DNA from: a virus
Strand: one strand, 5' to 3'
Length of the DNA: 64,000 bases
Virus record (IMG/VR): IMGVR_UViG_3300016665_000824
Location: 70,297-134,296 of that record
Shown here in pieces: positions 1 through 63,479 of the stretch (within the stretch, counting starts at the first letter, position 1; every line of letters starts with the position of its first letter). Below the pieces are notes generated by a model, which was given only the letters and a program-made list of their open reading frames with translations, had not been told where the DNA came from and searched no databases. Position numbers and translations under genes: made by a program.

Positions 1-297
1 CAAGCTTTCGCCGCAACATCTACCCTAGCGAATGTGGCTAGTAGTGCGACATCAGTTAGCTTGTTAGCTGCCAACAATAACCGCAAAACAGCAATCATTC
101 TAAATGATTCGACTTCAGATTTATACGTTACTCTCAACGCAAGCGCCGCCAGTACGACGAATTATTCATTATTTTTAGCCGCTAAAGTTGGTAACACGCC
201 ATCATTTTTAGCTATAAATGGTGATGATTATTCGGGCGAAATTCGTGGAATTTGGAGTAGTGCTAATGGTTTCGCAAGAATTACGGAGGTCGTGTAA
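1..297 (+). CDS. virion structural protein, C-terminal part (5' end lies outside the window); tail-fibre-like
   Basis: Reading frame is open from nt 1 (no stop before the GTG at 34); Ser/Thr/Ala/Asn-rich low-complexity sequence typical of fibre proteins; stop at 295-297 overlaps start of next gene. Confidence 0.35.
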   Translation, partial: QAFAATSTLANVASSATSVSLLAANNNRKTAIILNDSTSDLYVTLNASAASTTNYSLFLAAKVGNTPSFLAINGDDYSGEIRGIWSSANGFARITEVV

Positions 298-1202
298 TGA
301 TTATTGTTAATAATTCCACTAGTGCTGCTGGCATTGGGAAAAACTATTTTAAGAATCCCAATTTTCAAGTAATCCAAGGCACTGCATCAGGGACGCTCGC
401 CAATTCCACAGCATTACCCACAGCATCACTAGGATACCTAGGTGAGACTGAATGGGGTATTGCGGCGGCGGGTGGCACTCCTGCTTATGCTTTTAGCTCA
501 GCGAATGAATCTGTTACCTTTACGGGTGCAGCATCAACTACCGCTATTTATTTGCTTCAAAGACTTGAAAGCAGAGATATTACTACTCTAGCCAACAAAC
601 TGGCGACAATTACTTTTAGTGCTGAGATATCTAATTCGCTGCTTACTTCGGTAATTTGGGAAGTATTTCGCCCTACTACCACTGCTGACACTCATGGCAC
701 AATTGGCACACCTACGCAGACATTGATTGCTAGTGGAACGTTCACCGTAAACTCAACGCTGACAAAGTATAGCGCCACATTTACCCTTCCTGCATTAGCT
801 GCTAATGGACTGGAGGTAAGACTAAGAGTAGGGGCGCAAACTTCTGGAACTTGGGTGGTGTCAAGGTTGCAATTAGAAGAAGGTAGTGTTGCTACTAACT
901 TCATTTGTGATGATTATTTGACTGAATTGAATCAATGTCAAAGATACTTTAGAAGATTATCAGATTATCTATATGTTTATTTTGGTACTACTGGTGTATT
1001 AAATAGTGAACGAATGCATTTAAATATGTTTGGTACTACTAGAATTAGAAATTTAATAGCACAAAATTCAATAGGTGGAACTGGAGTTACTATATCAGCA
1101 GGACTTAATGAAGATTCAACTAGAGCTAATTATATAAATAATGCTGGAGCTGGTTACTATGGTGGCAATCCATTATATACAGTGTCAGCACACATCCCTT
1201 AA
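297..1202 (+). CDS. putative tail fibre / receptor-binding protein
   Basis: 301 aa, Gly/Ala/Ser/Thr-rich N-terminal part; C-terminal third (about nt 900-1200) is strongly AT-rich with different codon usage; ATG overlaps previous stop (TAATGA). Confidence 0.4.
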
Positions 1203-1219
1203 AAATACAAATAAAAACA

Positions 1220-1600
1220 ATGGAATTTACATATAAACTAATACAAAATCAACCAAACTCCATCATAAGACTTGAAGATGGAGCAATTATCCCAGAAGGG
1301 CATAATGGTGATTGGCAACTTTACGAGGCATGGTTAGCTGAAGGAAATACGCCTGAAGCCGCTGATGCGCTGCCTATTGTAGTGCGGGAAATCGATGCTC
1401 GTAAACTGCGATTAGCTTTGCTTCAATTAGGGCATCTATCTACCGTCACTAGCGCTATTTCTAGCCTTGGTGAGGCTGCAATCATTGATTGGGAATATGC
1501 CACAATCATTCGCGAAGATTACCCTTTGGTACTGGCTTTGGCAAGCAATTTAAATTTGGATATTAAAGCAATATTTGATTTAGCGAATTCATTGGTGTAA
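1220..1600 (+). CDS. hypothetical protein (positionally fibre-associated, possible assembly chaperone)
   Basis: 126-aa ORF directly downstream of fibre-like gene; no recognisable motif. Confidence 0.35.
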
Positions 1601-1602
1601 TT

Positions 1603-2148
1603 GTGGCAGGAGATCTAATCCCAATCTTAAAGAGCTATTTTGATTTTGCGGTGATCGCGCAAATATCGGACAATAGAGGTACGGTTGGGATACCTTCTCA
1701 ATCAAATCCCCCCGACAGCAGCATCAGCCAGATCAGCACTGCTGCTGTCGGTAGTGCTGTCGTTGTTACTGCTCTTTTTAAATTGTTTGAAAAATTTGGA
1801 ACAAATGTAATTGATGGGCAAAAAAGCAGGCTTAGCCTTGATTTAAAGGCTAAAGAGCTAGAGCTAGAATTTGAAAAGGCTGAAAAGTTGGCAGCCAGAA
1901 AAGAGGAAGAGCGCAAAACTGAACTAATCGAACAAATACTGAATAACGCACTGTCACACGTTTACAGCACAGCCAAAGAAAACAAAGAAATTTACCATGA
2001 ATTGCTTGAAAAATTCCAAAAAAGTAACGAAATTAACGAGAAAGCTTGGAGCAAAATAGAAGAACAAAGCCAAGAAATCCATTTGTTAAACCAAACTTTA
2101 AAAGATGTTTTAGCGACGCTAAGTTTGAAAGATCGTCAAAAAACCTAA
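1603..2148 (+). CDS. hypothetical membrane-anchored coiled-coil protein
   Basis: One hydrophobic segment (AAVGSAVVVTALFKLF) followed by Lys/Glu-rich coiled-coil region. Confidence 0.35.
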   Translation: MAGDLIPILKSYFDFAVIAQISDNRGTVGIPSQSNPPDSSISQISTAAVGSAVVVTALFKLFEKFGTNVIDGQKSRLSLDLKAKELELEFEKAEKLAARKEEERKTELIEQILNNALSHVYSTAKENKEIYHELLEKFQKSNEINEKAWSKIEEQSQEIHLLNQTLKDVLATLSLKDRQKT

Positions 2149-2214
2149 AACAAAAGCCCAACTCAAGCTATGGCAAGAATTGGGCGTAGGTTACGGACAG
2201 GGGTGGCTATGGGG

Positions 2215-2634
2215 TCAGGCCATTCCTACTTGATCTTGACCAGATAACGTAGCGATCGCCAACCACTCCGCTAGTCCATCGGCAAATCCTTTGTCACTGT
2301 ATTCGTCAAGGCTGTAGATAGAGTCGATGCGATCACGCACCTCTTCTAGCGTCAAACCTTCTTTTTGCCATTGTTTTAGCTTTCGCCCAATCACTTGATT
2401 GAACTTCTCGATTTGTGGCGCTAGATTTTCTCTCGCCAACTCAGAAATGCGATCGCGCAAATCATTCTCTTCGATTTCGGAGATCTCATCGTCAAACCGT
2501 TGCAGATATTCGGGATTTTCTTGAGCAATGCGAACGCGGAGTAGCTGTATCGCATCATCGAACAGGATGTCGATTTCGTTAGGTGCGATCGCGTCAGTCC
2601 TATAGCCAAGCTTTTCTAATACTTCGAGTTTCAT
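2215..2634 (-). CDS. hypothetical protein
   Basis: 139-aa ORF, last gene of minus-strand structural block; stop overlaps start of upstream gene. Confidence 0.4.
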   Translation of the reverse strand: MKLEVLEKLGYRTDAIAPNEIDILFDDAIQLLRVRIAQENPEYLQRFDDEISEIEENDLRDRISELARENLAPQIEKFNQVIGRKLKQWQKEGLTLEEVRDRIDSIYSLDEYSDKGFADGLAEWLAIATLSGQDQVGMA

Positions 2635-3041
2635 ACCTCTACCGCCTTAACACCATAATCGAAACTGAGAAGCTTGATCAAAAAGCTTGGCAACTCATCT
2701 TCAAGTCTAGTAAATCCAGTCTCTGACTGCCCTTCAAGATACGTGTAAACGTAGTAGGGAGCTTCTTCTTGGAGTAAGAAATAAAATTGATATCCTTGAT
2801 GATCGTAAAAAACAATAGCTTCGTCAGGAAGTTCCTTTAAAAACCCATCCTCTTTGAGCAAAGATTTAAAAGCTGCTTTTACTTCGGAGCAAGAGTGAAC
2901 AAGCAGGGCTATCAACTTGTTGTTCTCGCCTAGTAGTAGTTCTGTACTCATAGACTGATGGAGTCGCTCAAACTCTTCGGTAGGAGCGTCGGAAAAATTT
3001 ATTCTTAGGAGATCCTGAACCTTATCGAAAACTATATACAT
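2631..3041 (-). CDS. hypothetical protein
   Basis: ORF 2631..3146; N-terminal 35 codons look non-coding (Arg/Gly-rich), so start moved to ATG at 3041 (MYIVFDK...). Confidence 0.4.
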   Translation of the reverse strand: MYIVFDKVQDLLRINFSDAPTEEFERLHQSMSTELLLGENNKLIALLVHSCSEVKAAFKSLLKEDGFLKELPDEAIVFYDHQGYQFYFLLQEEAPYYVYTYLEGQSETGFTRLEDELPSFLIKLLSFDYGVKAVEV

Positions 3042-3256
3042 TTTAATCCTAAATCCTTGGTGGCTTTGATAGCGTCCTTTTCTGAGTCGGCGGCGTACAG
3101 GCAAAACTTGTCGGCGATCGCCTGTACCTTCCATAGCCCTGCCCATCCCTGCTCGATCTCAACTGGTTCCTGTGTATTCACAATGTTGGTGGCACGAATC
3201 AAGGTGTTGCTGAGCAGGTGGGAGTTTTGAATATCTTCGAGTGTTAATTTTGCCAT
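3032..3256 (-). CDS. hypothetical small protein
   Basis: 74-aa ORF immediately downstream of putative portal gene; 10-nt overlap with next gene. Confidence 0.3.
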   Translation of the reverse strand: MAKLTLEDIQNSHLLSNTLIRATNIVNTQEPVEIEQGWAGLWKVQAIADKFCLYAADSEKDAIKATKDLGLKCI

Positions 3257-4912
3257 TTATTTGAGTCGTCCCTCAACCCACATCTTAGCAAAGGGAGAGT
3301 CCAAATCCTTAAACAACCGAGAAGCAATTTCTACAGCCGAAACGGAATCCTGTTTAACACCTTCTTCGGGAGGTGTATCTGCTTGACCCTGATCTGCACC
3401 TTGATCGCCAAAGTAGTCGCCACCTTGATCGCCGCCATATCCCTGTAGAGCTGCAAGCTCTTGTTGCTGCTTGGCTAATTCTTCATCCTGCTTCAGTTTT
3501 TCCCACGCTTCCTTATCGAGAGAGACCTCATAGGAGTACTCTGTTCCACCGTAGAGGCTAGCGCGAACTTCATCCTTAGTAATTGCTCCCGACTGGGTTT
3601 GCAGAGCGATAAGCATATTAGTGTGAGCAGTTTGGTTGGCTACTTCATCTTTGCGACTCTCTACATAGAGGGGTTTAAACTTATAAGACCATCCTTCAGG
3701 GATCTTACCCTTCGTAGGGCCATCTTGAGCGAGCCAAATATACTTGTAAAGCATATCCAACTTGCGGTGGCGATAATTCTGCTCTTGATAGGCAGCAACG
3801 GTCTTTGACCAAACCTGATCTTCGGTTTCTCCAGTACCACCTGCCGCTAACCCTTTTGGTCCACGCCCAAAGATCATTGTGTAAGGAATCCCCACCGCAG
3901 CAACCAAATCTTCTTGAAAGCTCGCTTTCATGTCGGACAAGCCTTGGTAGTTCCGCACTAGATAAGTAAGGTCATCTTCCGAGTCTACCGACACCGCCCC
4001 CAGCTTCCGCATCTGCATCTTCATGGCGCGAAACTGTTCTGAAAGAATGGTTAAAGCTTTTGGCACTCCATTGGTAGTGGCAGCTCCACCAGCAGCTTTT
4101 TCTTGGGCAAGATTTTGTTTGATCAGGTTTTGCAGGTTCTTCATCTTGTGGAGAAGAATCGTGTGATCTTGAATCATCTCCGCCATTGCGTCGGAGACTT
4201 TTGTGTAGCGAGCAATTTCTTTGAGTGCTGAGACGATTAGCGGATCGCCCCATCCACCCGTCGATCGCAACAATCTTGGAGGTAATCGAGAACCATCAAA
4301 TCGAATAATCCGCGATTTGTGAATTAAGTTGAACGAGGTGTAGTTTGAGCCTAACTTATCTATCTTGGATTTCGATTCTTGGGAGTAAAAGACCTGATAA
4401 AAGTCGGGGTCATCAGAGGGTGCATCAAGGTTTGGGAAATACGGGCGGATATCCTGCGGGTCAAGCTCGTAGATACCCTTGATGGTTTTAATTTTTGCCG
4501 TGTTAACTGGCTCGTTTGGGGGTAGCCCATCATCGATATTGACGAGAATAGCTGCGCCGCCATAAATATTCGCTAGCCAGTCAGCCTTATTAAATTTGTA
4601 TTTCGCTTCTATCCTTTCTTCGTACTGTTCAAAGGCTGTGGCAATCTTGCGATCAGTGTCCTTAACTAAGCTAATCTCAGTCCATTTTCTTGTTGCCTCG
4701 TCAGGAAACACCGAGACAATTTTCTTTCCTAGCCAGTCCCTAGATAGTTCTTCGAGGGCTTTGTAGCTTAGTCTGCGCCGATCGCCTGTGCTATTCATCC
4801 CCAGATCATTCTGAGCGAGCAGGTTGTTGTTGTACTCAGCCTCATAGAGCGCATCGATAATGGCTCCGTCTTGTCTCACATAGACTTCGGGATAATCTGT
4901 TTCTTTGGACAT
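3257..4912 (-). CDS. putative portal protein (large virion protein)
   Basis: 551 aa, acidic, C-terminal Gly/Asp/Gln-rich disordered tail, located in structural block; size and composition fit phage portals but no diagnostic motif verified. Confidence 0.4.
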   Translation of the reverse strand: MSKETDYPEVYVRQDGAIIDALYEAEYNNNLLAQNDLGMNSTGDRRRLSYKALEELSRDWLGKKIVSVFPDEATRKWTEISLVKDTDRKIATAFEQYEERIEAKYKFNKADWLANIYGGAAILVNIDDGLPPNEPVNTAKIKTIKGIYELDPQDIRPYFPNLDAPSDDPDFYQVFYSQESKSKIDKLGSNYTSFNLIHKSRIIRFDGSRLPPRLLRSTGGWGDPLIVSALKEIARYTKVSDAMAEMIQDHTILLHKMKNLQNLIKQNLAQEKAAGGAATTNGVPKALTILSEQFRAMKMQMRKLGAVSVDSEDDLTYLVRNYQGLSDMKASFQEDLVAAVGIPYTMIFGRGPKGLAAGGTGETEDQVWSKTVAAYQEQNYRHRKLDMLYKYIWLAQDGPTKGKIPEGWSYKFKPLYVESRKDEVANQTAHTNMLIALQTQSGAITKDEVRASLYGGTEYSYEVSLDKEAWEKLKQDEELAKQQQELAALQGYGGDQGGDYFGDQGADQGQADTPPEEGVKQDSVSAVEIASRLFKDLDSPFAKMWVEGRLK

Positions 4913-4961
4913 ATTCAGTGGCGATCGCGTATGTCCATCTGACAGGCGATCGCCACTGAAT
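4913..4961. repeat. perfect 16-bp inverted repeat (ATTCAGTG+HIP1 / HIP1+CACTGAAT) with 17-nt loop abutting the start codon of gene 3257..4912
   Basis: attcagtggcgatcgc ... gcgatcgccactgaat read directly from sequence. Confidence 0.6.
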
Positions 4962-4973
4962 CAGGAGTATTTG

Positions 4974-5013
4974 CTAAAAAAGCAAAACAGGACTGCGTTG
5001 GCAATCCTGTTTT
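4974..5013 (-). terminator. intrinsic terminator for minus-strand gene 5033..5767
   Basis: 9-bp perfect stem aaaacagga/tcctgtttt with 12-nt loop; on the minus strand it is followed by a U-run (plus-strand ctaaaaaag). Confidence 0.5.
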
Positions 5014-5032
5014 AGGTGATTCAGATCGGAAT

Positions 5033-5767
5033 CTATTCTGGGATGTCTATATCCCCAAGCGCTCTTATCTTCTCTCTAAACTCTATAAATGTCCTTACCA
5101 CGCCTATGTAGTCACTAAATCGAGTCTTAAGCTCAGAGACTTCTTTCTGGCTTAGCTGTAGAGACTCAATATAGTTTTGTTCTCGATCCTTGAGGTTCGC
5201 GTTCTCTTCCTTAAGATCCGCAATCTGTCTGCGTAGATCGGCGATCGCTATTAGGATCTGATCAATCTCCTCCTTTGTTATTGCGCTTGGAGGATCTTCA
5301 AACTCCCCATTCTGTAGGGCGATCGCGCCAATCTTCCGAATAGCTTCGCGGTACTGAAGTCTTTCTTTCTGGAGGTCGTAGGCACTTTTCTCGATCTTTG
5401 TATACTCTGCGTCAGTCACGTATGGAGGGGACTCCACTTCGACACACAGAAAGTTCGTGCCAATTCTTGCTAATCTATACCCAATCTCGGACTTAGCTCG
5501 ACGGATATGATTTATCTGGGATTCCAGCTTTGTATAGAACTCGTCGGTCTCAACGTCGGACGGAGAAAAACCTTCGTCTAGCAAGAGCCTGCCAAGATAA
5601 TCAATCTTTTTAGCGAATAGCTTCTTGGTTTCTACTGCTCGTTCGTAGTCTTCTAGCTGCTCAACATAGGTCTGTGCAAGCGTCTGAATACTCTCGTACT
5701 GCGATCGCGGAACGAACCACTTGGAAAGGATGTCGTTAATTAGATTCAAATCAATCCTCCAGCTCAT
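5033..5767 (-). CDS. hypothetical coiled-coil protein (possible scaffold/assembly protein)
   Basis: ORF 5033..5824; likely start at ATG 5767 (MSWRIDLN...); heptad-rich sequence. Confidence 0.4.
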   Translation of the reverse strand: MSWRIDLNLINDILSKWFVPRSQYESIQTLAQTYVEQLEDYERAVETKKLFAKKIDYLGRLLLDEGFSPSDVETDEFYTKLESQINHIRRAKSEIGYRLARIGTNFLCVEVESPPYVTDAEYTKIEKSAYDLQKERLQYREAIRKIGAIALQNGEFEDPPSAITKEEIDQILIAIADLRRQIADLKEENANLKDREQNYIESLQLSQKEVSELKTRFSDYIGVVRTFIEFREKIRALGDIDIPE

Positions 5768-6440
5768 CTGCGTCTGGGGGTGCGGGAGTGCTAACCACAG
5801 TAAGCCAATTAGCTTTTTGCTCAACTAAAGCCGCTTGATAGTCCTGCTCCTCAAGAGTGGAGAGATCGGGGCGCAACTCGGCTAGTTTTTCGTCAGGAAT
5901 GGCAATCAATTTTTCGGCAGTTTTGACTGCGGCGATTTCTTCGGGAGTTACTTGCTGCCCAGTGAGATCTTCTAGGGTTGGCGCTTCAGGAGTTTTTTCG
6001 CCGAAGCCTTTTTTCTTGCGAGATTTCTTTTCTGGTTGAGGCTCCTCCACTGCGGCTTCCGTATTTTGAGGTAACACCGCATTGATAAATTCAATCAGTT
6101 CAGTTGCACCCAAACTTGCTGGCAAGGTGGGGATTAGCTTTCTGAGATTATTCTCCAATGCTACGCGGGGATTCTTGGCGGGGTCTGGCTCGATTTCAGG
6201 GTCTAGGTTTAGAGAGAACAAGAAAGCCGAGTCGCGATCGCTAGATTGTGTTTCCACCATTAGATCCTGAAAGGCTTTTACGGGATCTTTGGTTGTTAGC
6301 GCCGACTCATAGGCTTTGGCGGACGAAATTTTTAAAAGCGACCAAATAATCTTGGTGGCAGGATCGATCGCGGCATCGCCAGAAACGAAGGGGTACTCAA
6401 CGCCGCGCACGGTGATAGTGTTACTCAACGAATTCTCCAT
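5751..6440 (-). CDS. hypothetical acidic protein
   Basis: 229-aa ORF, Glu/Pro-rich central region; tightly packed in structural block. Confidence 0.4.
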   Translation of the reverse strand: MENSLSNTITVRGVEYPFVSGDAAIDPATKIIWSLLKISSAKAYESALTTKDPVKAFQDLMVETQSSDRDSAFLFSLNLDPEIEPDPAKNPRVALENNLRKLIPTLPASLGATELIEFINAVLPQNTEAAVEEPQPEKKSRKKKGFGEKTPEAPTLEDLTGQQVTPEEIAAVKTAEKLIAIPDEKLAELRPDLSTLEEQDYQAALVEQKANWLTVVSTPAPPDADELED

Positions 6441-6951
6441 AAATATTTAGGTTTGACTGATATCGAAAAATCACGCCGAAGGGGATATCGACTATCCATG
6501 CAGGTGACTGCTCATACTGCGTCCTTATGGGCTGTCTTGGTACAGGGGTAATATCCCGTCCGTCCCATTCGACTCCTAAGAAGTTTTTGCTGGGGATTTT
6601 AAATCTGTTGTACTTCGCGATCGCGTGAGAGATGAACGCCAGTTCGACAGGAACTTTTTGTTTGTATTCAGTCTCGTTGGCATATCCTTTGATCGCCAAA
6701 ACCTCAATCCTTTGCATTCGATAAGCCCTGTTTGGGCTGTCGGGACGCTCAGAATCTTTGCCGTGGTCGCCAATTGAAGCTATGCCGACGGTCTCGCCTT
6801 CGATCACGTTGTAGTAATCCCCACTAGTGTCTAAGTGCAGCTCACTGATAATGTGTGCGACAAAGTGATTTATCGACTCGGTTATAAGCCCTTTGTAATA
6901 GTCTTCAAAGTTCATCGTGGCGATCGCAAAATATTGCCTTGATATTACCAC
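6421..6951 (-). CDS. hypothetical protein
   Basis: 176-aa ORF, overlaps downstream gene by 20 nt. Confidence 0.4.
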   Translation of the reverse strand: MVISRQYFAIATMNFEDYYKGLITESINHFVAHIISELHLDTSGDYYNVIEGETVGIASIGDHGKDSERPDSPNRAYRMQRIEVLAIKGYANETEYKQKVPVELAFISHAIAKYNRFKIPSKNFLGVEWDGRDITPVPRQPIRTQYEQSPAWIVDIPFGVIFRYQSNLNIYGEFVE

Positions 6952-7077
6952 AGAAATGCGTTATGGTTGTTATGCGATCGCCAAGTCTCAATTGGCAGGA
7001 AGAATGTCACTGGCGACAAACATAAGGATACGCGGCGAGATACTGGCGATCATCTTAAAAGAAATCGTAAAAACCAC

Positions 7078-7509
7078 ATGAAAGAACTTGAAAACAATAA
7101 AGATCTTGAATCTTTTCTAAAAGAGCTGCGAGAGCAGGCGGTTGCGGGTGACTTTGGTGTGGATGCTCTGCTTAACGAAGTAAGGAAAGCCGCAAAAAAG
7201 TGTGAAGAATTTAGGAATACAGAGTCTAGTCAGCCCAAGGATATTGAGTTTATTCAAGCTCTAATGCGATTTGCCGCTAACCAGCCCAGTCTTGCATTTC
7301 TAACCCCTTATTTTGGCAAACAAAAATCAGAAGAAGAAGTTCAGGCTATTTTTAAATCGTTGCTGCTTAGGGAGTTAGGAGAACTCAAACTCTCTGCTAA
7401 TCACCACAAAGCCAGTATTCAGTTCTATCAATATGAACTAAAAAGGAACGAGAGATATCGAGCAGACATAGAAGAAGCGATCTCCAGAAATTATCCAAAC
7501 CTAAAATAA
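7078..7509 (+). CDS. hypothetical protein
   Basis: ORF 6967..7509 begins at TTG; first ATG at 7078 (MKELENN...). Confidence 0.35.
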   Translation: MKELENNKDLESFLKELREQAVAGDFGVDALLNEVRKAAKKCEEFRNTESSQPKDIEFIQALMRFAANQPSLAFLTPYFGKQKSEEEVQAIFKSLLLRELGELKLSANHHKASIQFYQYELKRNERYRADIEEAISRNYPNLK

Positions 7510-7754
7510 TGAACTTGTATATTTCAATTCTGTCGTACCTATCCCTTGGAGTTGCCTATACTCTTCTGAGGTACAAATACCTTGAAGACAACTGTATTAG
7601 GGCTTTGCGAGACAATTTTTCTTATCTGGATTCACGAACTCAAAATCTTCTGCTAAAACAGGTTCTTTTCTCCGTCGTCTTGACTTATCCTCTGTTTATT
7701 CTTGGAGGCATTTGGGACTGGATATGCGATCGCTTTAATCCGCCCGAAGACTAA
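7509..7754 (+). CDS. small membrane protein
   Basis: 81 aa with two hydrophobic segments; ATG overlaps previous stop. Confidence 0.3.
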   Translation: MNLYISILSYLSLGVAYTLLRYKYLEDNCIRALRDNFSYLDSRTQNLLLKQVLFSVVLTYPLFILGGIWDWICDRFNPPED

Positions 7755-8485
7755 AACCCATCGGGGAAACAAACTCCCCGATCGCGCAGAATTCCCGCAA
7801 TATCATCCTTAACCCCTTCCCAGTATTCCCGATCAATCTTGCCGACTGCGACAGTCCGAGAAGTGGTCGGGAATTTTTGATCTTTCTCGGCATCTTTAGG
7901 ATCTCGCTGGAGGTTAGCAGCTTCCTCAAGAATATCCATGACCATGCCCATGCCAAAACTCTTAAGCACCGTATCGCCAGAGCCTTTGAAATTTAGATGT
8001 ACTGCGGCAATGATGCGAGCGTCCAAATTGCCTGTCGAGAGCGGTGCGGAAGGCTTGTCTTTGGACTGTTTGGGTTGACGACTTTGCTTGGCGGGATAGG
8101 TCAAACCCATCAACAATTGCAGTTGTGATAGACCAGGCATTTCCTGCTCGTAGCCAACGGGTTTAACTGGCTCGGTACAGAAGAAAAAGTTGTGGCGGGA
8201 CTTAGTGGTGAGATTGTCGATATTTAGGAGGCAGTCTGGCTGGGTGCGGCGAAATATCAGCGCGATCGCCTCTAAATGTTTGCGCGATCGATATACCAAG
8301 AACTGATGCACCGTAATTTCATCCTTTAATACTGCGTCGGGCGGATATACTGGTACACCCCTGATGAGTTCGAGCATGTCGTCGATAACAGGGATTAACT
8401 CGGAACGGGTATGAAAAGATGGTTCGCGAATAAATTCCCACGACTCGTCTTCATAGTTAATTTTCTGAGGATAAATTAAGGGCAC
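7751..8485 (-). CDS. hypothetical protein (structural block)
   Basis: 244-aa ORF. Confidence 0.4.
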   Translation of the reverse strand: MPLIYPQKINYEDESWEFIREPSFHTRSELIPVIDDMLELIRGVPVYPPDAVLKDEITVHQFLVYRSRKHLEAIALIFRRTQPDCLLNIDNLTTKSRHNFFFCTEPVKPVGYEQEMPGLSQLQLLMGLTYPAKQSRQPKQSKDKPSAPLSTGNLDARIIAAVHLNFKGSGDTVLKSFGMGMVMDILEEAANLQRDPKDAEKDQKFPTTSRTVAVGKIDREYWEGVKDDIAGILRDRGVCFPDGF

Positions 8486-11299: not shown

Positions 11300-11755
11300 A
11301 TGTCTAACTCTAGTTCTGCCACAAAATTGGCGATCGCAAGATTAAAAGGATCTGACCTGCCTATTTTTGTTCCAGTTTCAGTCTCTGAGAAAGTCGCAAC
11401 CCTAGTCAGGGAGTGTATTTTACAGTCCGACAGTTTAAAGATATTAAAAGTTACTACTACAGTTTACAACGAGCTTACTAAGCATTTAAAGCAGTACGAA
11501 AAGCCAAAATATACCATTCCTCAGTATCTTTTGATGCTCCTATATACGGTTTCTACTACTTCAGAATTGATCGAAAAACACAACAAGGGTTTAATTTCAG
11601 ATGACGAGTTTATTAACTGTATCAAAAACAACAAAAACGCAAACGGGACTAAAACCTCCCGCAAAATGGGTCGGAAGAAAGCAAGCGTTGATGCCAGCGA
11701 TCGCGCAGTACTTCCCCGCGAGGTTCACAAAAGAACCAGTTCCAAGGTTTCTTGA
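11300..11755 (+). CDS. hypothetical protein (3' end uncertain; overlaps MTase gene in another frame)
   Basis: 151-aa ORF; last ~40 codons look non-coding and overlap the Dam-like ORF. Confidence 0.3.
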   Translation: MSNSSSATKLAIARLKGSDLPIFVPVSVSEKVATLVRECILQSDSLKILKVTTTVYNELTKHLKQYEKPKYTIPQYLLMLLYTVSTTSELIEKHNKGLISDDEFINCIKNNKNANGTKTSRKMGRKKASVDASDRAVLPREVHKRTSSKVS

Positions 11756-12518
11756 TTTCAAAAAGGGTGTCGGCAATTTCCACGACCCTTTCGTTGGTAC
11801 TGGTAGTGCATTTTTGTATTTTGCGGATGGATTTCGAGGCGATCGCAAGATTTTTATTAGTGACAGTAATCCTGAACTCATTAATATTTGGCTGTGCATT
11901 CAAGCCGATCCTCTAAGGCTTTTAAGATCCTTGCTTGAATACAAGCGCCCTGTATTTAACAGCGCCGAATCGTACTATCACGAAAGGCAGATCTTCAATC
12001 AGCAGTTTAAAGGTTCTTACGACTACGAGCTAGCAGCAAGAATGATCTACTTAATTCAGGCTGGTTTCAATAGCCTATGGAGGGTTAACAGCGACGGTGA
12101 AATGAACACGCCTTTTGGCTCTCAGAAGCAAATTGCCCTTCTTACCGAGAATGATTTGACCGCGCTTTCGGTTCTCCTTCAAAAAGCGACAATCAAACAT
12201 CAGCCTTTTGAAGAGTCGCTAAAAGATGTACAACCCAATGATGTCGTCTATCTCGACCCGCCATACATTGAAGTCAAAAAGAATTCCTTCAATAAATACA
12301 CCACAAAAGGTTTTAGCAGAGAGCAGCAGATACTCCTCCGCCAAGAAGCCGATCGCCTGCACGATCTAGGCGCTTATGTATACGCCAGTAATAGCGATAC
12401 CCCCTTGAGTCGCGAAATTTGGTCGGGCTGGAAAATCGCAGAACTGACGAGATCGGGCTGCATGAACTCAGATGCAACCAAGCGTCAACGGGTTGGAGAG
12501 TTGTTATTTTATAAATAA
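11601..12518 (+). CDS. N6-adenine DNA methyltransferase, Dam family (D12 class)
   Basis: KWVGRK (cf. KWAGGK), FVGTGSAF SAM-binding motif, and DPPY catalytic motif (VVYLDPPYIE) in the translation. Confidence 0.8.
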   Translation: MTSLLTVSKTTKTQTGLKPPAKWVGRKQALMPAIAQYFPARFTKEPVPRFLDFKKGVGNFHDPFVGTGSAFLYFADGFRGDRKIFISDSNPELINIWLCIQADPLRLLRSLLEYKRPVFNSAESYYHERQIFNQQFKGSYDYELAARMIYLIQAGFNSLWRVNSDGEMNTPFGSQKQIALLTENDLTALSVLLQKATIKHQPFEESLKDVQPNDVVYLDPPYIEVKKNSFNKYTTKGFSREQQILLRQEADRLHDLGAYVYASNSDTPLSREIWSGWKIAELTRSGCMNSDATKRQRVGELLFYK

Positions 12519-14578: not shown

Positions 14579-16336
14579 CTAGCTAGCGATCGCCATTAAT
14601 TTAGTCAACCCAGCCTTCCGCAACATCTCTTGCTGGAGCTTGGTTTGAAAATATGGCTTATCCTCAGCACTTGCTACTCGATACAGTTCCAGCCAGTATT
14701 TCTCCCGCTTCTCGCAGTGTATATGCTGAATCTTGGCGATCGCACGGTCAACCACTGCCTTGACATCGCCAGCGATCGCCTCTTGCATTGCGTAAGGTAT
14801 GTCCGAAAAGTCATCGTTCAGGAATTTATCCCACAGCGCACAGTGATCGTCATGGGCAAATTCGATCTCTTGAAGCAGGATATACCCCCGCAAATCGGGA
14901 TGATGGACAAAGGCTTTTAGTATCTGCATTTCGGCTAGTTGCAGAGCAGTATAACTGGGTTTTGCGGCAACCTGTGGTGATTCAGATCGGAATACCGATC
15001 GCGCAAGTCGATGTAAATCCTCCTCAATGCGTACGGCAAGGCGAGCATTTCCCTGAGCTAACTTCTGAGCACACTTATGGGTATAGTGGCTACGTCGGGC
15101 ATCCATCGGCAATGGGGCGAGTATTTGCGCGATCGCTTGATTAGCTCGCTGGAAGTCGGCAGAATTGTTAAGGTCTTTGCCCTTAATCTCAAGGTCAATT
15201 AACCAGTCAAGGTATAGCGGCGCTTCGCGGAGCAGCGATAAGTACGCTTCAGAACCATAAGTGGTTAGGTACTCGTCGGCATCTTTTTTGCCCTCAATGG
15301 TTAGTATCCGTAGATTTACCGTACCATCCAGAACTAGCTCTAGGACTTGACTTACGGCTTTTTTAGTTGCCGTAACACCTGCTTTGTCCGAGTCGAAGTT
15401 GCAAACTATACGCTTCGACTCAGTATGGCGTAAAACCTGTTTAATTTGAGCGGCGCTAAGCGCTGTGCCCATTGAGCCGACTGCATGGGTAATTCCATTT
15501 TGGTGCAGGGAAATCACGTCGAGGTGTCCTTCGACAATTACCGCCTCGTCGTTCTTGGCGATCGCCTCACAAGCTTTGTCTAGTCCAAACAGTAGTTCAC
15601 CCTTTTTGAACAACTCGGTTTCGGGCGAGTTGATATACTTTGCGCCGTCGTCCTCACCGCTTAGCGATCGCGCAGAAAATCCAACCACGCGACCACGGAT
15701 ATCGGCGATCGGGATAATCAGGCGATCGCGAAATCGGTCATAGTAGCCTTCGTTTTCTTTGCGAGGTATCGCCAACCCCAATTCTTCAAGAGTTTGAACG
15801 GGGATATTTAACTCGGCAAGGTTACTCCACCCCGCAGGCGCGTAACCGAGCTTGAACTTATTGCAGGTATCTCTGGTGATTTTGCGTTTTTCTAAGTAGG
15901 CAAGGGCTTTGGTGTTGAGCTGTTGCTGGTAGTAACGAGTGACTTTAGCTATTTGATCGAAGAGGTATTCCCTGTGCGATCGCTCCTTAACGATTTGCTC
16001 GGCATGTTCTGGCTCTTCGGTTCTTACTTCAACCCCGTAACGACCAGCCAAATCTAGTACGGCATCTGGGAACGATTTATGACCAATCTCCATCATAAAC
16101 TTGATCGCACCACCCGACGCACCGCAGTTATGGCAGTAATACATGCCTTTGCTGGGGTCTACCGAGAGGGCGCTGGGATTCGTGCCGTTGTGAAATGGGC
16201 AAGCGCCACGAAATGAGTGACCCGACCGCTTAAGTACGACGTTTTCGCTAACGACATCAACGATGTCGGCTTTGTCGTTTACTGCGGCGATCGTATCAGC
16301 ATGGATTCGGAATGATTTAGGTTTGGCGGATTGCAT
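14579..16336 (-). CDS. dnaG: DNA primase DnaG
   Basis: CHC2 zinc finger (CPFHNGTNPSALSV...YYCHNCGASGGAIKF) and TOPRIM-like EGHLDVISL segment. Confidence 0.85.
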   Translation of the reverse strand: MQSAKPKSFRIHADTIAAVNDKADIVDVVSENVVLKRSGHSFRGACPFHNGTNPSALSVDPSKGMYYCHNCGASGGAIKFMMEIGHKSFPDAVLDLAGRYGVEVRTEEPEHAEQIVKERSHREYLFDQIAKVTRYYQQQLNTKALAYLEKRKITRDTCNKFKLGYAPAGWSNLAELNIPVQTLEELGLAIPRKENEGYYDRFRDRLIIPIADIRGRVVGFSARSLSGEDDGAKYINSPETELFKKGELLFGLDKACEAIAKNDEAVIVEGHLDVISLHQNGITHAVGSMGTALSAAQIKQVLRHTESKRIVCNFDSDKAGVTATKKAVSQVLELVLDGTVNLRILTIEGKKDADEYLTTYGSEAYLSLLREAPLYLDWLIDLEIKGKDLNNSADFQRANQAIAQILAPLPMDARRSHYTHKCAQKLAQGNARLAVRIEEDLHRLARSVFRSESPQVAAKPSYTALQLAEMQILKAFVHHPDLRGYILLQEIEFAHDDHCALWDKFLNDDFSDIPYAMQEAIAGDVKAVVDRAIAKIQHIHCEKREKYWLELYRVASAEDKPYFQTKLQQEMLRKAGLTKLMAIAS

Positions 16337-19701: not shown

Positions 19702-20924
19702 TGAAAGGATACGAACAGACCTGCCCCAAAGTCGAAGCGATCGGGCAAATCAACTTTCACGGCGACGGTGTTTTTACGCCAAACAACTGGTATCACAACA
19801 TCTGTCACAAGAACGGTAAACCCTATCTCGAAGCAATAATTCTTCTTGCGGATATTGTTTCTTGGTATTTGCCCATCTACGAAAGAGATGAAGTCACTGG
19901 CAAGACGATTGGGGTCAGGAAAAAATTCAAGGCAGACAAACTCCAGCGAAACTACGACTCTTTTGCGGACCATTATGGCATGACCAAAGATCAAGCTAGA
20001 AATGCTCTGAAACACCTAGAAAGAGACGGACTCATAGACCTAGAGCTAAGAACAGTCGAAACTTCAGTACAAAAGCTTGGAAATGTTTTGTTTATCGGTG
20101 TTTACCCAGAAAAAATCAAGGATTACACTTTCACCCTCTCGCCAAAAGAACAGACCCCTGTGCTCACAGAAACCGATAGGGGTATCGACAGAAAAGCAGA
20201 GGGGTCTGCACAGAAACAGACAGCACTCCCCACAGAAGCCCAGACAAATACAGATCAATCTACAGATCTTTCTACTGATCAATCTACTAAAAATATAAGA
20301 GCGGATGAATTTTTTGCGATCGCTCCTTCGTCGCAAATCCAAGAAAATTCTTTTCCCGCACAAACAGAAAATCCGAGAATTGAAGAAACCCCAACACCCC
20401 CTACCCCCTCTTCCCCTTCCGCGCCCGAAAATATCGGCAAGGCGATCGCGCCCTCGGTAGCCACCTCAAAACAGGCAGAAGCGTATATGCAGTTTGAGCA
20501 GCGCTTTAGCCAACCAAAACCTCAAAACCGCCACGTACCCAAACTGCTTGTGGAGGCTGGCTATGCAGAATGGCACAACGGCAAACACCCGAACGACTGG
20601 CGCAAATCCTTGATAGATGTTTGCATCCAAAGGAAGAAAAAGCGTGGCGATGAAGCGACTGTAGGTGCAGCCACCGACTTTATTTTTAACGTAATGAAAG
20701 ACTGTATTTCCCTCGGATTCTGGGGTAAGTTCCAAGAGCTTGTTGATCAAGCCCTAAAGCTCGAAGCCGTCGAAGCGATCGCCGCACAACAAAAACAAAT
20801 TGAAGATCAGCGATTCGAGCAACAGCCAGTTGAATCTAACGCCCCCACAATGACTCTTGAACTTCGCAAGCAATATGCTGCCGAATTGAGACGTAAAGCC
20901 AACAACATGAGACTAATTGCTTAA
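19701..20924 (+). CDS. candidate replication initiation / helicase-loader protein
   Basis: 408 aa immediately upstream of and coupled to dnaB (TGATG overlap with previous stop); winged-helix-like N-terminus, low-complexity linker; function inferred from position only. Confidence 0.3.
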   Translation: MKGYEQTCPKVEAIGQINFHGDGVFTPNNWYHNICHKNGKPYLEAIILLADIVSWYLPIYERDEVTGKTIGVRKKFKADKLQRNYDSFADHYGMTKDQARNALKHLERDGLIDLELRTVETSVQKLGNVLFIGVYPEKIKDYTFTLSPKEQTPVLTETDRGIDRKAEGSAQKQTALPTEAQTNTDQSTDLSTDQSTKNIRADEFFAIAPSSQIQENSFPAQTENPRIEETPTPPTPSSPSAPENIGKAIAPSVATSKQAEAYMQFEQRFSQPKPQNRHVPKLLVEAGYAEWHNGKHPNDWRKSLIDVCIQRKKKRGDEATVGAATDFIFNVMKDCISLGFWGKFQELVDQALKLEAVEAIAAQQKQIEDQRFEQQPVESNAPTMTLELRKQYAAELRRKANNMRLIA

Positions 20925-20928
20925 AACT

Positions 20929-22656
20929 ATGAAAGACCCACAACAGATCCAAAGACTCAACGCTCAGATCGAACCTAGCAACGTTGAAGCCGAACAAACG
21001 ATCATTGCGGGGGTTTTTGAAGGTGGAAGCCTTCTTAGCCTAGTCGCCGACGCAATCACACCTGAGATGTTTTTTTCGAGCCTTCTAGGGGCATTTTTTA
21101 GGGCATCGTTGTTTTTGAGAAATAGCGATCGCGACATAAACACCCTAACCTTAGCCGCCGCGCTACAGGAGATGGGTTTTAAAGACTTTTACGGCTTTGA
21201 CAGTATCTCGGCGCTAGTCCACAACACCTATGCCGACATTATGGGCAGCACGTATATTCAAAGTCCAGCCCACTACGAATCTGCCGCCGCCCTAATCCGT
21301 GAAGCCTCCGTAAGGCGAGACCTGATTAAAGCTGGCAGAGCAGCGATCGCCGCAGCCTACGATCAAGAAATATCTGTGCTTGATGCCTGTACTAAAGCTC
21401 AAGATTTGATTGGGGATGCTATGACATCATCTCAGGTTCGTAGTACCGTGTTTGAGGTTGGTACAACCTACACAAACATGTGTGCGGAACTTCTCGATCC
21501 TCAAATTGGAGAGTTCAATCCCGTAATCCCCAGTGGTTATGCGGCGTGGGATGAAATGCTTGAAGGTGGTTTTCGGGGTGCTGAACTCGCGGTTATTGGT
21601 GGAGACTCGGCGATCGGTAAGTCGATGCTCTTGTTTGGTGCGGCATGGAATATGGCGAAATTCCTTTCGGATCAAGGTAGGGTGGGTTATATCGGCTCGA
21701 TGGAAATGTCCACTCGTAGCGTTGTGCATCGCTGGATTGCTTCCGAAGCGCAAGTGGCTTTATCTCGGATGCGTCGCCGAGAATTAAGCGAAGCCGATTG
21801 CGAAAGGATTATGAAGGCATCTAGCGCTGGCGAAATGTTGAATAACCTTGTAATTGACGAGGACAACAAGGCTACTATCCCCCAAATGCTTAACCGAGCC
21901 AAAGAATTTGCACGTAAACATGCTAGAAAATATGGCGGTAGCGGCGAGCTTGGCTTTATGGTTATCGACAACATCAAGATCGCCGAAAAAGGTGGTGACG
22001 ATTTCAACTTGGTTAACCGATACCTCAAAGATCTCAAGGGGATTGCAAAGGATTACAACATCCCGATAATCTCTTTGTCTCAGCTAACTAGAGAATCCCT
22101 GTTAAAAAGTTCTGACAAACGCCCTACTGTTGAGGGGTTGTATGGCGGCAAAGCGATTGAAGAAAATGCTGACGACATTTTTGGCTTGTATCGAGGTGTT
22201 AAGTACGACGATTTCTCTATCCCCACAAACCGAGCTGAGATTATTCGTCTGAAAGGTCGAAACTCAGACCAGTCAAAGGAAAATAGAACGATTTTGCTTG
22301 GCTTCAATGGCGCTCTTTCTACTTTTTACGACCTTGGCGAACCAAAACTAGCCCAAAAATCGGAGCAAAAACAAGCGATCGCCACACCAGTCACCGAAGA
22401 CATTAACTACTTCGGCGATCTCGAAGATGGATGTCAAGTTGTTCTGGATATTTCCTACTCAACACCTGAAGAAAAATCGGAGATCAGCGATCGTATCAAC
22501 GCAAAGCAGCTACCAAAGCCCAATGAAGTCTGTGGAGTAACCCGCCTAAGCGTTTGCGAAACTCCTGAAGTAGGTAAATTTGGGGTTGCCCACCTAATAC
22601 TGCCCGACAACTCCGAAATGAAGGTTGCAGTAGACGAATTGCGCCGAGTCAGTTAG
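20929..22656 (+). CDS. dnaB: replicative DNA helicase DnaB
   Basis: DnaB-like N-terminal domain (NVEAEQTIIAGVF), Walker A GGDSAIGKS, RecA-like core; start set at ATG 20929 (ORF track TTG 20917). Confidence 0.75.
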   Translation: MKDPQQIQRLNAQIEPSNVEAEQTIIAGVFEGGSLLSLVADAITPEMFFSSLLGAFFRASLFLRNSDRDINTLTLAAALQEMGFKDFYGFDSISALVHNTYADIMGSTYIQSPAHYESAAALIREASVRRDLIKAGRAAIAAAYDQEISVLDACTKAQDLIGDAMTSSQVRSTVFEVGTTYTNMCAELLDPQIGEFNPVIPSGYAAWDEMLEGGFRGAELAVIGGDSAIGKSMLLFGAAWNMAKFLSDQGRVGYIGSMEMSTRSVVHRWIASEAQVALSRMRRRELSEADCERIMKASSAGEMLNNLVIDEDNKATIPQMLNRAKEFARKHARKYGGSGELGFMVIDNIKIAEKGGDDFNLVNRYLKDLKGIAKDYNIPIISLSQLTRESLLKSSDKRPTVEGLYGGKAIEENADDIFGLYRGVKYDDFSIPTNRAEIIRLKGRNSDQSKENRTILLGFNGALSTFYDLGEPKLAQKSEQKQAIATPVTEDINYFGDLEDGCQVVLDISYSTPEEKSEISDRINAKQLPKPNEVCGVTRLSVCETPEVGKFGVAHLILPDNSEMKVAVDELRRVS

Positions 22657-28105: not shown

Positions 28106-28331
28106 CCCAGCAGGACATTATCCTAGACAAGATGCGTCGGAAGCAATCGGAATTTGAAGACTACTACGTTTTTAGCACTCACGACATAGTGACCCTATGT
28201 GAGGACAGTCATCTGGACTGGGACTTGGCTTTTGACCAGCTAATAGCTTTAAACAAGAGGAATCTAGTTGCTATAAATCCGACATATTGCGATCGCACAG
28301 GCAAATTTATCGGATTGTTGTGGGGTTTAAA

Positions 28332-29276
28332 ATGAGTAAAACCGTAGCCACGATGTATTCTGGCTTTGGCGGAGTTGATCAGGGTTTCGTTTTGGCAGGG
28401 TATACGCCAGTCTTTGCGATCGATAACAATCCTGATGCAGTAGCGGTTTATATCGAGAATTTTGGCAACCACTGTCTAGAGAAGGACGTTTGTGAGTTTG
28501 ATTATTCAAGAGTTAAAGCAGATCACCTCCATGCTTCTCCAAGCTGCAAAGAGTTTAGTAGCGCCAATCACCGTAGTAGCGAAACCGATCTCGATATTCG
28601 ATGCGCCCAAGCTACGGTTAAGGCGATCGCACAGATAAACCCTCAAACATTTTCCCTCGAAAATGTAAAGCAGTACGCTAAGTCTAAGTCTTTTGATTTG
28701 ATTAGGCGATCGCTACGAGAAATGGGCTACGCCTGCAACGTAACCGTAGTCAACGCGAAGGATTTCGGTGTATCCCAATCACGAGAAAGGCTAATTCTTC
28801 GAGCATGGGTTAAATCCCGCAAACGCCCTAGACCTTTGGCGTTGTACAAACAGTGTTTAACAATGGGGTGGCATGACGCGATCGCCGATTTAATCCCCAC
28901 TCTCAAACCACAACCATTGAATAATTGGCAGCTAGCCTCTCTTGAGGAGCAGGGTATAGACCCCACCAACCTAACTGCACTGGTTAGCAAAGATGGGTCT
29001 CGCAAGAAAAAAGGCTTTAAAAATACTTTTGCCTTGGTAATCCCCTCGTCCAAGCCTTGCCCAACCCTCAAGGCAATGGGGCATAATCAGCACTGTCAGC
29101 AGTATTCGATTGTGGTTAACGGTGTTGGTTATCGGATTTCTACCGAGGCGATCGCGAGACTAATGAGCTTTCCCGACTCATTCAAATTCTCAGGAGTGAA
29201 TTATAAAGACTGTATGGGTTTAGGTAATGCAGTACCGCCATTATTGGTAAGAGCGATCGCGGAAAGTTTTGCTTAA
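28332..29276 (+). CDS. DNA (cytosine-5)-methyltransferase
   Basis: Motif I YSGFGG, motif IV PSCKEFS (Pro-Cys catalytic dipeptide), ENV, QSRER, GNAV; start at ATG 28332. Confidence 0.8.
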   Translation: MSKTVATMYSGFGGVDQGFVLAGYTPVFAIDNNPDAVAVYIENFGNHCLEKDVCEFDYSRVKADHLHASPSCKEFSSANHRSSETDLDIRCAQATVKAIAQINPQTFSLENVKQYAKSKSFDLIRRSLREMGYACNVTVVNAKDFGVSQSRERLILRAWVKSRKRPRPLALYKQCLTMGWHDAIADLIPTLKPQPLNNWQLASLEEQGIDPTNLTALVSKDGSRKKKGFKNTFALVIPSSKPCPTLKAMGHNQHCQQYSIVVNGVGYRISTEAIARLMSFPDSFKFSGVNYKDCMGLGNAVPPLLVRAIAESFA

Positions 29277-31410: not shown

Positions 31411-31615
31411 TTTTTTTGGCGTAGCGATCGGTAAATACTATCGCAATATTAAAACTGGAGACATATACCAAGTAGTTCTTCTTTCATTTTCATCTGAGTT
31501 GGGTACGGAACTTCTAGTTAGCTATAAGAAACAAGGAGACGCGCTTCCTTGGACTCGTCCCTTAGCTCTTTTTATTATTAAATTTGAGGAGGTCGGAAGT
31601 AATGTTCCAGCCTAA
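31403..31615 (+). CDS. DUF1653-like small protein
   Basis: GKYYRNIKTGDIYQVV ... LPWTRPLALF resembles the DUF1653 pattern; start at ATG 31403. Confidence 0.35.
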   Translation: MVDFFGVAIGKYYRNIKTGDIYQVVLLSFSSELGTELLVSYKKQGDALPWTRPLALFIIKFEEVGSNVPA

Positions 31616-32456
31616 AGTAACGATTATTGCCGACAGCGTAAATCCGTGGGGGACGAGGCTGACCTCCTTTGCTCTTACCTATCCACGGTTTATACATGCA
31701 GAAATGTTGCGGCACAGAGTCTTTTCTCGCTGTGTATCAAGTTCACGGGCTATTCCGATCGCCAAGATGATCAAAGCTGTCGAAGAAGCCGATCTGTATC
31801 CAGTCTTTTGGGGTGCAGCGCAAAAAGGCATGGCGGCTGACCACGAAATTAAAGAGGAAGATAAATGGTACGCGATCGCTATATGGGACGAACACAGAAA
31901 AGCGACCATAGAAGCGGTCAAAAAGCTCTCCGACTTGGAACTGCACAAGCAAATTCCGAATAGACTGCTAGAACCATTTGCGCCAGTAACCGAACTGGTC
32001 ACGGCAACTGAATATCAAAATTTCTTTGAGCTGCGAGATCACCCTGCGGCTCAGCCAGAAATTCAGGCGATCGCCAAGCTAATGCGTAAAGCATATACGG
32101 AAGGCAAACCCAAAGAGTGCGAGCTAGGTCAATGGCACATCCCGTTCATAGACCCAGAGAAAGACAAGGATTTAGATCCTGAAATTGTACTTAAGGTTGC
32201 GGTCGGTCGGTGCGCCAGAGTGAGCTATCTAACTCATGACGGCATTCGAGATCCACAGGAGGATGTCAGATTGTGCGATCGCCTATGGAATAGCAAGCCA
32301 AAGCACCTGTCTCCGTTTGAACACGTAGCAAGGGTCGCTCCTTGGAAAACCAAGAACGATAACTTTGATGAATGGGCTAGCCTACGCCATGAGCTAAAGG
32401 TTGGCGCATTAATTTATGAGAATGGAAAAATCAAGGAGGGTCGTCGTGCTAAATAA
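31602..32456 (+). CDS. thyX: FAD-dependent thymidylate synthase ThyX
   Basis: ThyX signature RHRxxSxxxxSxR present (LRHRVFSRCVSSSRAIP); GAGGAGG upstream of ATG 31602. Confidence 0.85.
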   Translation: MFQPKVTIIADSVNPWGTRLTSFALTYPRFIHAEMLRHRVFSRCVSSSRAIPIAKMIKAVEEADLYPVFWGAAQKGMAADHEIKEEDKWYAIAIWDEHRKATIEAVKKLSDLELHKQIPNRLLEPFAPVTELVTATEYQNFFELRDHPAAQPEIQAIAKLMRKAYTEGKPKECELGQWHIPFIDPEKDKDLDPEIVLKVAVGRCARVSYLTHDGIRDPQEDVRLCDRLWNSKPKHLSPFEHVARVAPWKTKNDNFDEWASLRHELKVGALIYENGKIKEGRRAK

Positions 32457-38864: not shown

Positions 38865-39090
38865 AGAAGATGCTGAAGAATGCTTAGCTAAAAATCTAAA
38901 GGTTGTAACGCGCTATGGGCTAGGCGAAATTATTTCGATCGCCAAGAAAAGCGACCCAGTACAATGGGCAGAGATAAAACAACTTGACCGCGATCGCCAG
39001 TTTGAAGTACCCAGATGTCTATACCTATCGAGCATCAGCAGATATACTGCTGTTTTGGTTGAGCAAAGTGAAGTAGAAAGTATTTTTTAA
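38857..39090 (+). CDS. hypothetical protein
   Basis: ORF 38683..39090; start at ATG 38857 overlapping previous stop; last plus-strand gene before packaging block. Confidence 0.35.
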   Translation: MTREDAEECLAKNLKVVTRYGLGEIISIAKKSDPVQWAEIKQLDRDRQFEVPRCLYLSSISRYTAVLVEQSEVESIF

Positions 39091-63405: not shown

Positions 63406-63414
63406 AGCTCTTAG

Positions 63415-63455: not shown

Positions 63456-63479
63456 GTTAGCCCCTACCCTATTAATCCA

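Follow-up and report, generated by a model that had tools for sequence, protein, structure and literature searches.

Description

How does a stretch of more than two kilobases without a single copy of HIP1 (highly iterated palindrome 1, GCGATCGC) come to lie in a phage genome that is otherwise saturated with it? Here, we describe such a stretch at one end of a 64,000-nucleotide viral sequence (IMG/VR record IMGVR_UViG_3300016665_000824, positions 70,297 to 134,296; hereafter the window), which by its encoded functions belongs to a tailed cyanophage or prophage. The stretch lies in a cassette of four plus-strand genes, organized as an operon between minus-strand head genes, that includes a tail-fibre gene; window nt 1-2148 holds its distal three and a half genes. 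Positions upstream of window nt 1 on the source contig (ENA ERZ27292652 k141_20893, 134,398 bp) are given as negative window coordinates, about 74 kb of that contig is covered, and the locus with 10 kb on each side of the fibre gene is referred to as L001. The cassette is very probably a recently acquired fibre operon, built by recombination, in a HIP1-saturated cyanophage.

Results

HIP1 occurs 186 times in the 64 kb, where 1.1 sites are expected from shuffled sequences, at a density of 2.9 sites/kb and a mean spacing of 344 bp. A first-pass annotation, made from the sequence alone, had reported HIP1 every few hundred bp and none in nt 1-2250, and both statements hold: the first site is at 2252, and nt 1-2251 form the longest HIP1-free gap of the window. 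As the largest of 187 gaps under uniform placement, a gap of 2251 bp is not significant in the window alone (P=0.22). The window edge cuts this gap, and its true extent is greater than first described; on the source contig it spans 2998 bp, from -746 to 2252, starting inside the 509-aa first gene of the cassette, the first 490 nt of which hold three HIP1 sites. The expected number of gaps of 2998 bp in 73.7 kb is 0.037, so that significance is reached only after extension on the source contig. Within the 953 HIP1-free codons, no coding HIP1 is observed against 8.0 expected (P=3e-4). The second-longest gap of the window (1807 bp, 3122-4920) coincides with the portal gene.

The same region differs in composition. 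G+C content (GC) is 0.402 for nt 1-2250 and 0.456 elsewhere, placing the region among the 0.3% of all 2250-bp windows that are lowest in GC. The sliding-window GC and codon-usage analysis that had been proposed as a check shows a non-uniform composition, and the description of the 3' third of the fibre gene (about 900-1200) as AT-rich with different codon usage proved correct: GC over 300 bp reaches its window-wide minimum (0.29) at 951-1250, within an AT-rich tract of about 885 to about 1300 that passes the fibre stop codon and enters the next gene. G+C content at third codon positions (GC3) is 0.307 in the cassette, where its own amino acids and the background synonymous usage predict 0.46 (z=-9.5), and 0.119 in the fibre C-terminal domain (C-domain, 897-1199; z=-7.2), lower than in any of 1073 background windows of 100 codons (minimum 0.24). 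All four cassette genes are within the five lowest-GC3 genes of 110. The tetranucleotide GATC, enriched about two-fold in this genome, is depleted over the cassette only (0-4 per 1.8 kb; background 14.9 +/- 3.7), a signal that the first-pass annotation had missed. From -234 to 1611 there is one GATC only, at the very edge, and the cassette GATC sites at 1612, 1653, 1731 and 2131 are all in the 181-aa last gene, as is the single one-mismatch HIP1 of the cassette (1651). The part of the first cassette gene upstream of about -236 has HIP1 or GCGATC half-sites at background density; the last 98 codons of the gene lie in the window, and its C-terminal domain is in the HIP1-free, GATC-free part.

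No match to window 1-8000 was found among cultured phages by nucleotide search in 'distant' mode, and relatives were therefore taken from metagenomes; a search of a genome collection gave one locus only, from Phormidium tenue FACHB-1050. These comparisons show the fibre cassette as a horizontally exchanged mosaic, different in the closest backbone relatives and shared with unrelated backbones. Four backbone relatives (L035-L037 and L039) share 96-97% amino acid identity in the portal and 81-91% nucleotide identity along the backbone, and a more distant one (L038) shares 80% and 67-79%, respectively. The alignment of L036 and L037 extends up to -1214, 18 nt into the first cassette gene, and backbone alignment resumes at about 2208 in all relatives except L039, the contig of which stops within the portal gene (blastn to L035, L036 and L037: 80.6% from 2208 onwards). 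Between -1214 and 2208, there is no alignment between the window phage and its backbone relatives. Conversely, 13 loci with related fibre genes have no other nucleotide similarity to the 74 kb of this phage; some clearly have another backbone, such as L045, in which the portal is of Mu type and a tape-measure gene adjoins the fibre. The idea of an acquired module in a mosaic genome is thus supported, by backbone relatives without the cassette and by 13 unrelated contigs that share the cassette only. In correction of the first-pass reading, the unit is not only the fibre C-terminus but the whole four-gene cassette with nested sub-modules, the fibre tip being a module within it. The N-terminal 55 aa of the first gene are related to the first cassette gene of L037 (34% identity), a likeness that fits a conserved attachment end. 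At this position, L036 and L037 carry another, 6.7-kb cassette with about ten different fibre-like genes (L037 12289-19107; L036 3854-10502). Among its products are paralogous pairs of about 220-240 aa and one protein of 291 aa in which a collagen-like repeat, GDKGDKGDQG, occurs; the HIP1 density of this cassette is 1.4-1.8/kb, compared with 2.6-2.9/kb in the flanks.

Pieces of the window cassette recur on contigs that lack HIP1. L042 (3.4 kb; 0 HIP1, 3 GATC) is 94% identical over -38..896 and 98-100% identical over 1-342, and L040 (1.5 kb, GC 0.35; 0 HIP1, 1 GATC) is 94% identical over 339-1342 and 97-100% identical over 523-942 and 1183-1302. These two contigs come from different samples, have unrelated flanks, show a GATC observed/expected ratio of 0.2, and are more similar to the cassette than the backbone is to that of its nearest relatives. 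An exact search of viral contigs with a 23-mer from nt 1-342 found L048 (7.9 kb, 0 HIP1, 1 GATC), which matches -39..320 at 88%; a 23-mer from the C-domain had no match in the same kind of search. Three other fibre-family loci of 13-21 kb (L004, L007 and L017) contain no GATC where 49-76 are expected, which amounts to complete avoidance.

How a resident copy looks can be read from the rest of the genome and from fibre-family members in other backgrounds. Outside the cassette, HIP1 encodes 100/102 A-I-A tripeptides, 43/57 [SGCR]-D-R and 30/43 x-R-S-[LPHQR]. The proteome contains 11-fold more A-I-A than expected (102 against 9), so HIP1 pressure shapes the phage protein sequences themselves. Half-HIP1 sites at A-I or I-A (33% genome-wide here) are found at 9/33 positions in fibre genes of HIP1-rich backgrounds, at 2/68 in HIP1-poor backgrounds, and at none of the four in the window fibre. 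In the assembly gene, the window has A-I-S (GCT ATT TCT), L002 and L010 have a HIP1-encoded A-I-A, and the GATC-free L004 and L007 have A-V-S. Taken together with GC3, GATC and the comparisons between genomes, the half-sites and the AIS/AIA difference point to a window copy that is probably recent and unameliorated.

The 301-aa product of the second cassette gene is a tail fibre, as the first-pass term 'fibre-like' had implied. It matches phrog_4492 tail fiber (E=5.8e-19) and, by tblastn, the tail-fibre protein of S-2L (52% identity, E=1e-25) as well as fibres of S-CRM01, S-N03 and B3/B23. Its AlphaFold2 model (mean predicted local distance difference test score 83.4) has two beta-sandwich domains and matches predicted tail fibres in BFVD (E=8e-25); in Foldseek searches against the PDB, the N-terminal domain (N-domain) resembles carbohydrate-binding modules (CBM4, CBM22, CBM16 and CBM61; template modelling score 0.55-0.72 on target). 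Receptor binding would be a function of the C-domain. The N-terminus of the 126-aa protein encoded next matches the 'tail fiber assembly-like protein' that adjoins the S-2L tail-fibre gene, the protein also matches phrog_20370 and phrog_6034 (families without assigned function), and a homologue lies directly 3' of the fibre gene in every relative examined. The sole family match of the 181-aa protein is weak (phrog_856, E=0.008). A promoter scan of the cassette found fewer promoter-like sites than in shuffles, and 2149-2214 holds no convincing terminator.

Within the cassette, the AT-rich tip of the fibre and the 5' third of the assembly gene appear to form a module that spreads separately. This segment (821..1380) holds the last 25 N-domain codons, the C-domain, the spacer, and the assembly gene up to its codon 53. 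More than 1258 fibre homologues were found, and the identities of the two domains were compared over 120 of these. The N-domain is conserved at about 80% amino acid identity in most of the 120, and its identity to the window protein is uncorrelated with that of the C-domain (r=-0.19): 91/120 homologues have N-domains 77-93% identical and unrelated C-domains, and homologues that share the C-domain type have N-domains 64-100% identical. At the DNA level, the tip was compared between the window and four close alleles (L040, L049, L050 and L051). L051 is 93-100% identical to the window over 821-1380 outside three hypervariable patches (Table 1) and then 35-45% identical, with sharp edges and continuity across the spacer. 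Synonymous divergence (dS) of the N-domain is 0.16-1.4 among the five alleles, with a ratio of nonsynonymous to synonymous divergence (dN/dS) of 0.1-0.2, while C-domain dS in the same pairs is 0.0-0.33, or 3-7 times lower. C-domain GC3 is 0.10-0.18 in all five carriers, regardless of N-domain or contig composition. It is the edges of the identity tract, the low C-domain dS and the uncorrelated domains that argue for a separate spread of the tip together with the start of the assembly gene. All C-domain types, unrelated ones too, end in (S/A)-A-H-I-P and a stop (window 1188-1199), and the 5' end of the assembly gene is conserved as well (88.6% to L005 over 1188-1366), which gives the variable tip a conserved right-hand flank. 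A protein search with the C-domain alone gave one 100-aa match and did not recover known close relatives, and is therefore silent on the origin of the tip.

The differences in the three patches are almost all nonsynonymous, often with two bases changed per codon, amid framework codons that are identical in nucleotide sequence. C-domain dN/dS is about 5 for the window against L040 and against L049, and the C-domains of L040 and L049 differ by 10 nonsynonymous and 0 synonymous changes.

These results suggest the following history. Nt 1-2148 and the 1.2 kb upstream would be a self-contained operon in a hypervariable slot between head-morphogenesis genes, assembled through homologous recombination at conserved junctions. 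Candidate junctions are the opening ~18 nt of the first gene, -38, about 340 (start of the N-domain), about 820-900 (between N- and C-domain), about 1190-1380 ('SAHIP-stop' and the 5' end of the assembly gene), and 2208 (operon end). The segments may have been drawn from a circulating pool of related fibre genes carried by HIP1/GATC-rich, neutral and GATC-free phages. The part from about -38 to 2200 would be a recent arrival from HIP1-free, GATC-avoiding phages of lower GC, too recent to have taken on the resident signature (no HIP1, no half-sites, almost no GATC, GC3 0.31); transfer would have run from such phages into this one, and the swap would presumably change host range. The AT-rich tip with the 5' part of the assembly gene may be a still younger module, spread over diverged fibre genes, whose exposed patches are probably under diversifying selection.

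Alternative explanations

Several observations weigh against a recent arrival. The HIP1-free region contains no HIP1-compatible tripeptides, and in the fibre open reading frame (ORF) HIP1 is absent from each of the seven HIP1-rich backgrounds, against 14.1 sites expected in total; absence from every HIP1-rich relative makes this a property of the family and not a clock, so that the case for a recent arrival has to be carried by the other signals. Taken by itself, the half-site test of the window copy lacks significance (0/4; 1/10 for the whole module). The native portal is HIP1-free for 1807 bp. L040 and L042 are short and mostly the module itself, so that it is chiefly L048, L004 and L007, with no more than 68-88% identity, that define the genome signature of the donors. 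Finally, the contig is a short-read metagenome assembly, and its finest switches (343-522) could be strain chimeras. Because the fibre ORF and the native portal are HIP1-free for protein-sequence reasons, a HIP1-free stretch alone is no evidence of foreign origin, and the HIP1 signal in the fibre gene is largely an effect of protein sequence. The first-pass annotation had named amino-acid constraint as what could undo its reading; for the fibre ORF such constraint does apply in part. In Synechococcus elongatus PCC 7942, HIP1 scarcity together with deviant codon usage was taken as a sign of recent xenology, with the caveat that some genes may lack HIP1 through selection (Delaye et al., 2011; PMC3025956). 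The cassette shows both features (0 HIP1 against 8.0 expected; GC3 0.307 against 0.46), and the same criterion brings the same caveat. Unlike in that study, the recipient here is a phage and not a chromosome, and relatives give independent confirmation. Could constraint explain everything, with a long-resident cassette low in HIP1, GC3 and GATC on account of a beta-rich protein that has no room for AIA, xDR or RSx, high late expression, or folding codons? N-domain GC3 is low in every background (0.21-0.35), and in Synechococcus elongatus HIP1 frequency falls as transcript abundance rises (Xu et al., 2018; PMC5861425), both of which would suit this explanation along with the HIP1-free fibre relatives and portal. 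It is nevertheless improbable, because the closest backbone relatives hold a different cassette, and pieces of the cassette are 97-100% identical in unrelated backbones while its own backbone is only 81-91% identical to the nearest. Resident copies have half-HIP1 sites, GATC and HIP1-encoded AIA that the window copy is without, and the sharp edges of the identity tract cross a non-coding spacer. The portal serves as a control: it is 96% identical in amino acids in backbone relatives, its HIP1 gap is also present in L037, and it has one HIP1-compatible motif, yet its GC3 (0.474) and its 13 GATC sites are both normal.

The recent arrival could also be an artefact, if the contig joined reads of at least two co-occurring phages at shared sequence. 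This is a k141 short-read assembly, and the switches between L042-like and L040-like sequence lie within a stretch where those two are more than 85% identical. Backbone on both sides would, however, require two independent false joins, and -1214, -38 and 2208 have no long identical repeat; other HIP1-rich phage contigs and the Phormidium tenue contig also carry a HIP1-free fibre member in HIP1-rich DNA, and L036 and L037 show the same slot as the site of a fibre cassette, which leaves a chimera very unlikely. Diversification of the tip by a dedicated mechanism, such as a diversity-generating retroelement (DGR), other templated hypermutation, or an invertible or shufflon switch, has a slighter chance still, even though near-identical alleles vary in the three patches only, almost always nonsynonymously and in many codons at two positions, between flanks that are 100% identical. 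DGRs act on phage tail-fibre tips, as in Mtd of Bordetella phage BPP-1, and the likeness includes variation at codon positions 1 and 2 that is concentrated in the final ~70 residues of the receptor-binding protein. Unlike in BPP-1, the fold predicted here is a beta-sandwich and not a C-type lectin. A DGR was rejected: in the 74 kb there is no template-like repeat of 851-1260 (blastn, word size 7: self-match only) and no ORF with a YxDD reverse-transcriptase motif, no RVT family occurs among the genes called near the fibre in L001, L041 and L045, and dozens of adenines within the variable stretch (aa 230-283) stay the same in the five alleles, which is incompatible with adenine-specific mutagenesis. 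An invertible or shufflon switch of the Gin, Cin or Min kind was likewise rejected, with no relevant inverted repeats in L001 7000-13000, no alternative C-termini in the 74 kb, and no recombinase among neighbouring genes; a 24-nt 'inverted repeat' at L001 8472/12937 is merely two similar gene starts. The multi-base changes in hypervariable codons, amid a framework that is nucleotide-identical even where N-domain dS exceeds 1, are explained only in part, and there is a slim chance that the patches come from a dedicated mechanism outside the DGR and invertase systems, such as targeted diversification or conversion of micro-cassettes, in place of ordinary mutation, selection and recombination.

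Comparison with known systems

Mosaic evolution of tail fibres is known in tailed phages from the gp37/gp38 pair of T-even phages, the Stf/Tfa pair of lambdoid phages, and the H-G or S-U pairs of P2 and Mu. Like these, the operon described here combines a conserved proximal part with an exchangeable distal receptor-binding part, co-transfers an adjacent assembly or chaperone gene, exchanges at conserved linkers, and has hypervariable segments within a framework that is conserved and contains glycine-rich motifs (here GAGYYGG). It differs in having no sequence homology to them, in its short fibre of 301 aa, made up of a CBM-like N-domain and a small tip with a beta-sandwich fold, and in that the exchange is visible as a change in a host-imposed oligonucleotide signature (HIP1, GATC). 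Closer in sequence are the fibres of S-2L, S-CRM01, S-N03 and B3/B23, whose N-domains are homologous (31-52% over aa 3-222), and S-2L also has the gene order of fibre then assembly-like gene; none of these matches the window C-domain, and their genomes are unrelated to the window backbone.

Modular exchange of tail fibres is an accepted route of phage host change, and the result is in that sense expected. The cassette is a well-resolved new example of the known exchange of receptor-binding parts, in a little-studied group of freshwater cyanophages. Newly arrived DNA stands out base by base here because the signature of the recipient is extreme (near-saturation with HIP1, two-fold GATC). Half-sites, the change from AIS to AIA, and the return of GATC allow copies of the fibre family to be placed in a series from unameliorated to partly ameliorated, and such a ranking offers a way to order transfers and to trace gene flow between freshwater cyanophages with opposite host GATC rules.

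Genome context

The coordinates of the cassette features and of other recognizable genes are given in Table 1. The cassette is flanked by genes for the portal, a Mu-F-like protein, a tail-completion protein and a minor head protein; the closest portals, of S-CBS4, CL131 and PaV-LD, share only about 30% identity with that of the window phage.

Table 1. Features of the cassette and of the surrounding genome, in window coordinates
Feature	Position	Strand	Basis or remark
First cassette gene, 509 aa	starts at -1232 (L001 8472); window part 1..297	+	gene call on source contig
Tail-fibre (putative receptor-binding) protein gene, 301 aa	297..1202	+	phrog_4492, S-2L homology, fold
Fibre N-domain, aa 15-200, beta-sandwich, CBM-like	339..896	+	Foldseek; GC3 0.325
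AT-rich, apparently exchangeable sub-module	821..1380	+	identity tract with L051, dS contrast
Hypervariable patch 1, aa 230-239	984..1013	+	codon alignment, five DNA relatives
Hypervariable patch 2, aa 256-267	1062..1097	+	codon alignment, five DNA relatives
Hypervariable patch 3, aa 280-283	1134..1145	+	codon alignment, five DNA relatives
Tail-fibre-assembly-like protein gene, 126 aa	1220..1600	+	S-2L neighbour match; position after fibre
Last cassette gene, 181 aa, one hydrophobic segment and long coiled coil	1603..2148	+	ORF
Right junction with backbone	2208..2634	-	first backbone gene 2215-2634, 139 aa
Portal	3257-4912	-	PF06381, E=1.5e-57
Primase	14579-16336	-	
DnaB-like helicase	20917-22656	+	
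ThyX-type thymidylate synthase domain	31584-32456	+	PF02511, E=6e-13; among replication genes
Large terminase	39087-40715	-	
Sliding-clamp-like protein	44004-45185	-	

A second group of low-GC3 genes is found at the other end of the window, at 62878-63405 (0.28), 63480-63980 (0.37) and 62099-62326 (0.38). This group (62099-63980) adjoins a 1250-bp HIP1 gap (61384-62634), is not depleted in GATC, and consists of genes without a Pfam match.

The window also encodes a D12-class N6-adenine DNA methyltransferase (11601-12518, plus strand; PF02086, E=7e-43) and a C5-cytosine methyltransferase (28287-29276, plus strand; PF00145, E=1e-39). In cyanobacteria, methyltransferases of the N6-adenine and C5-cytosine classes recognise GATC and CGATCG within HIP1. 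Genes for D12- and C5-class methyltransferases are also close to the fibre cassettes of the relatives L041 and L045.

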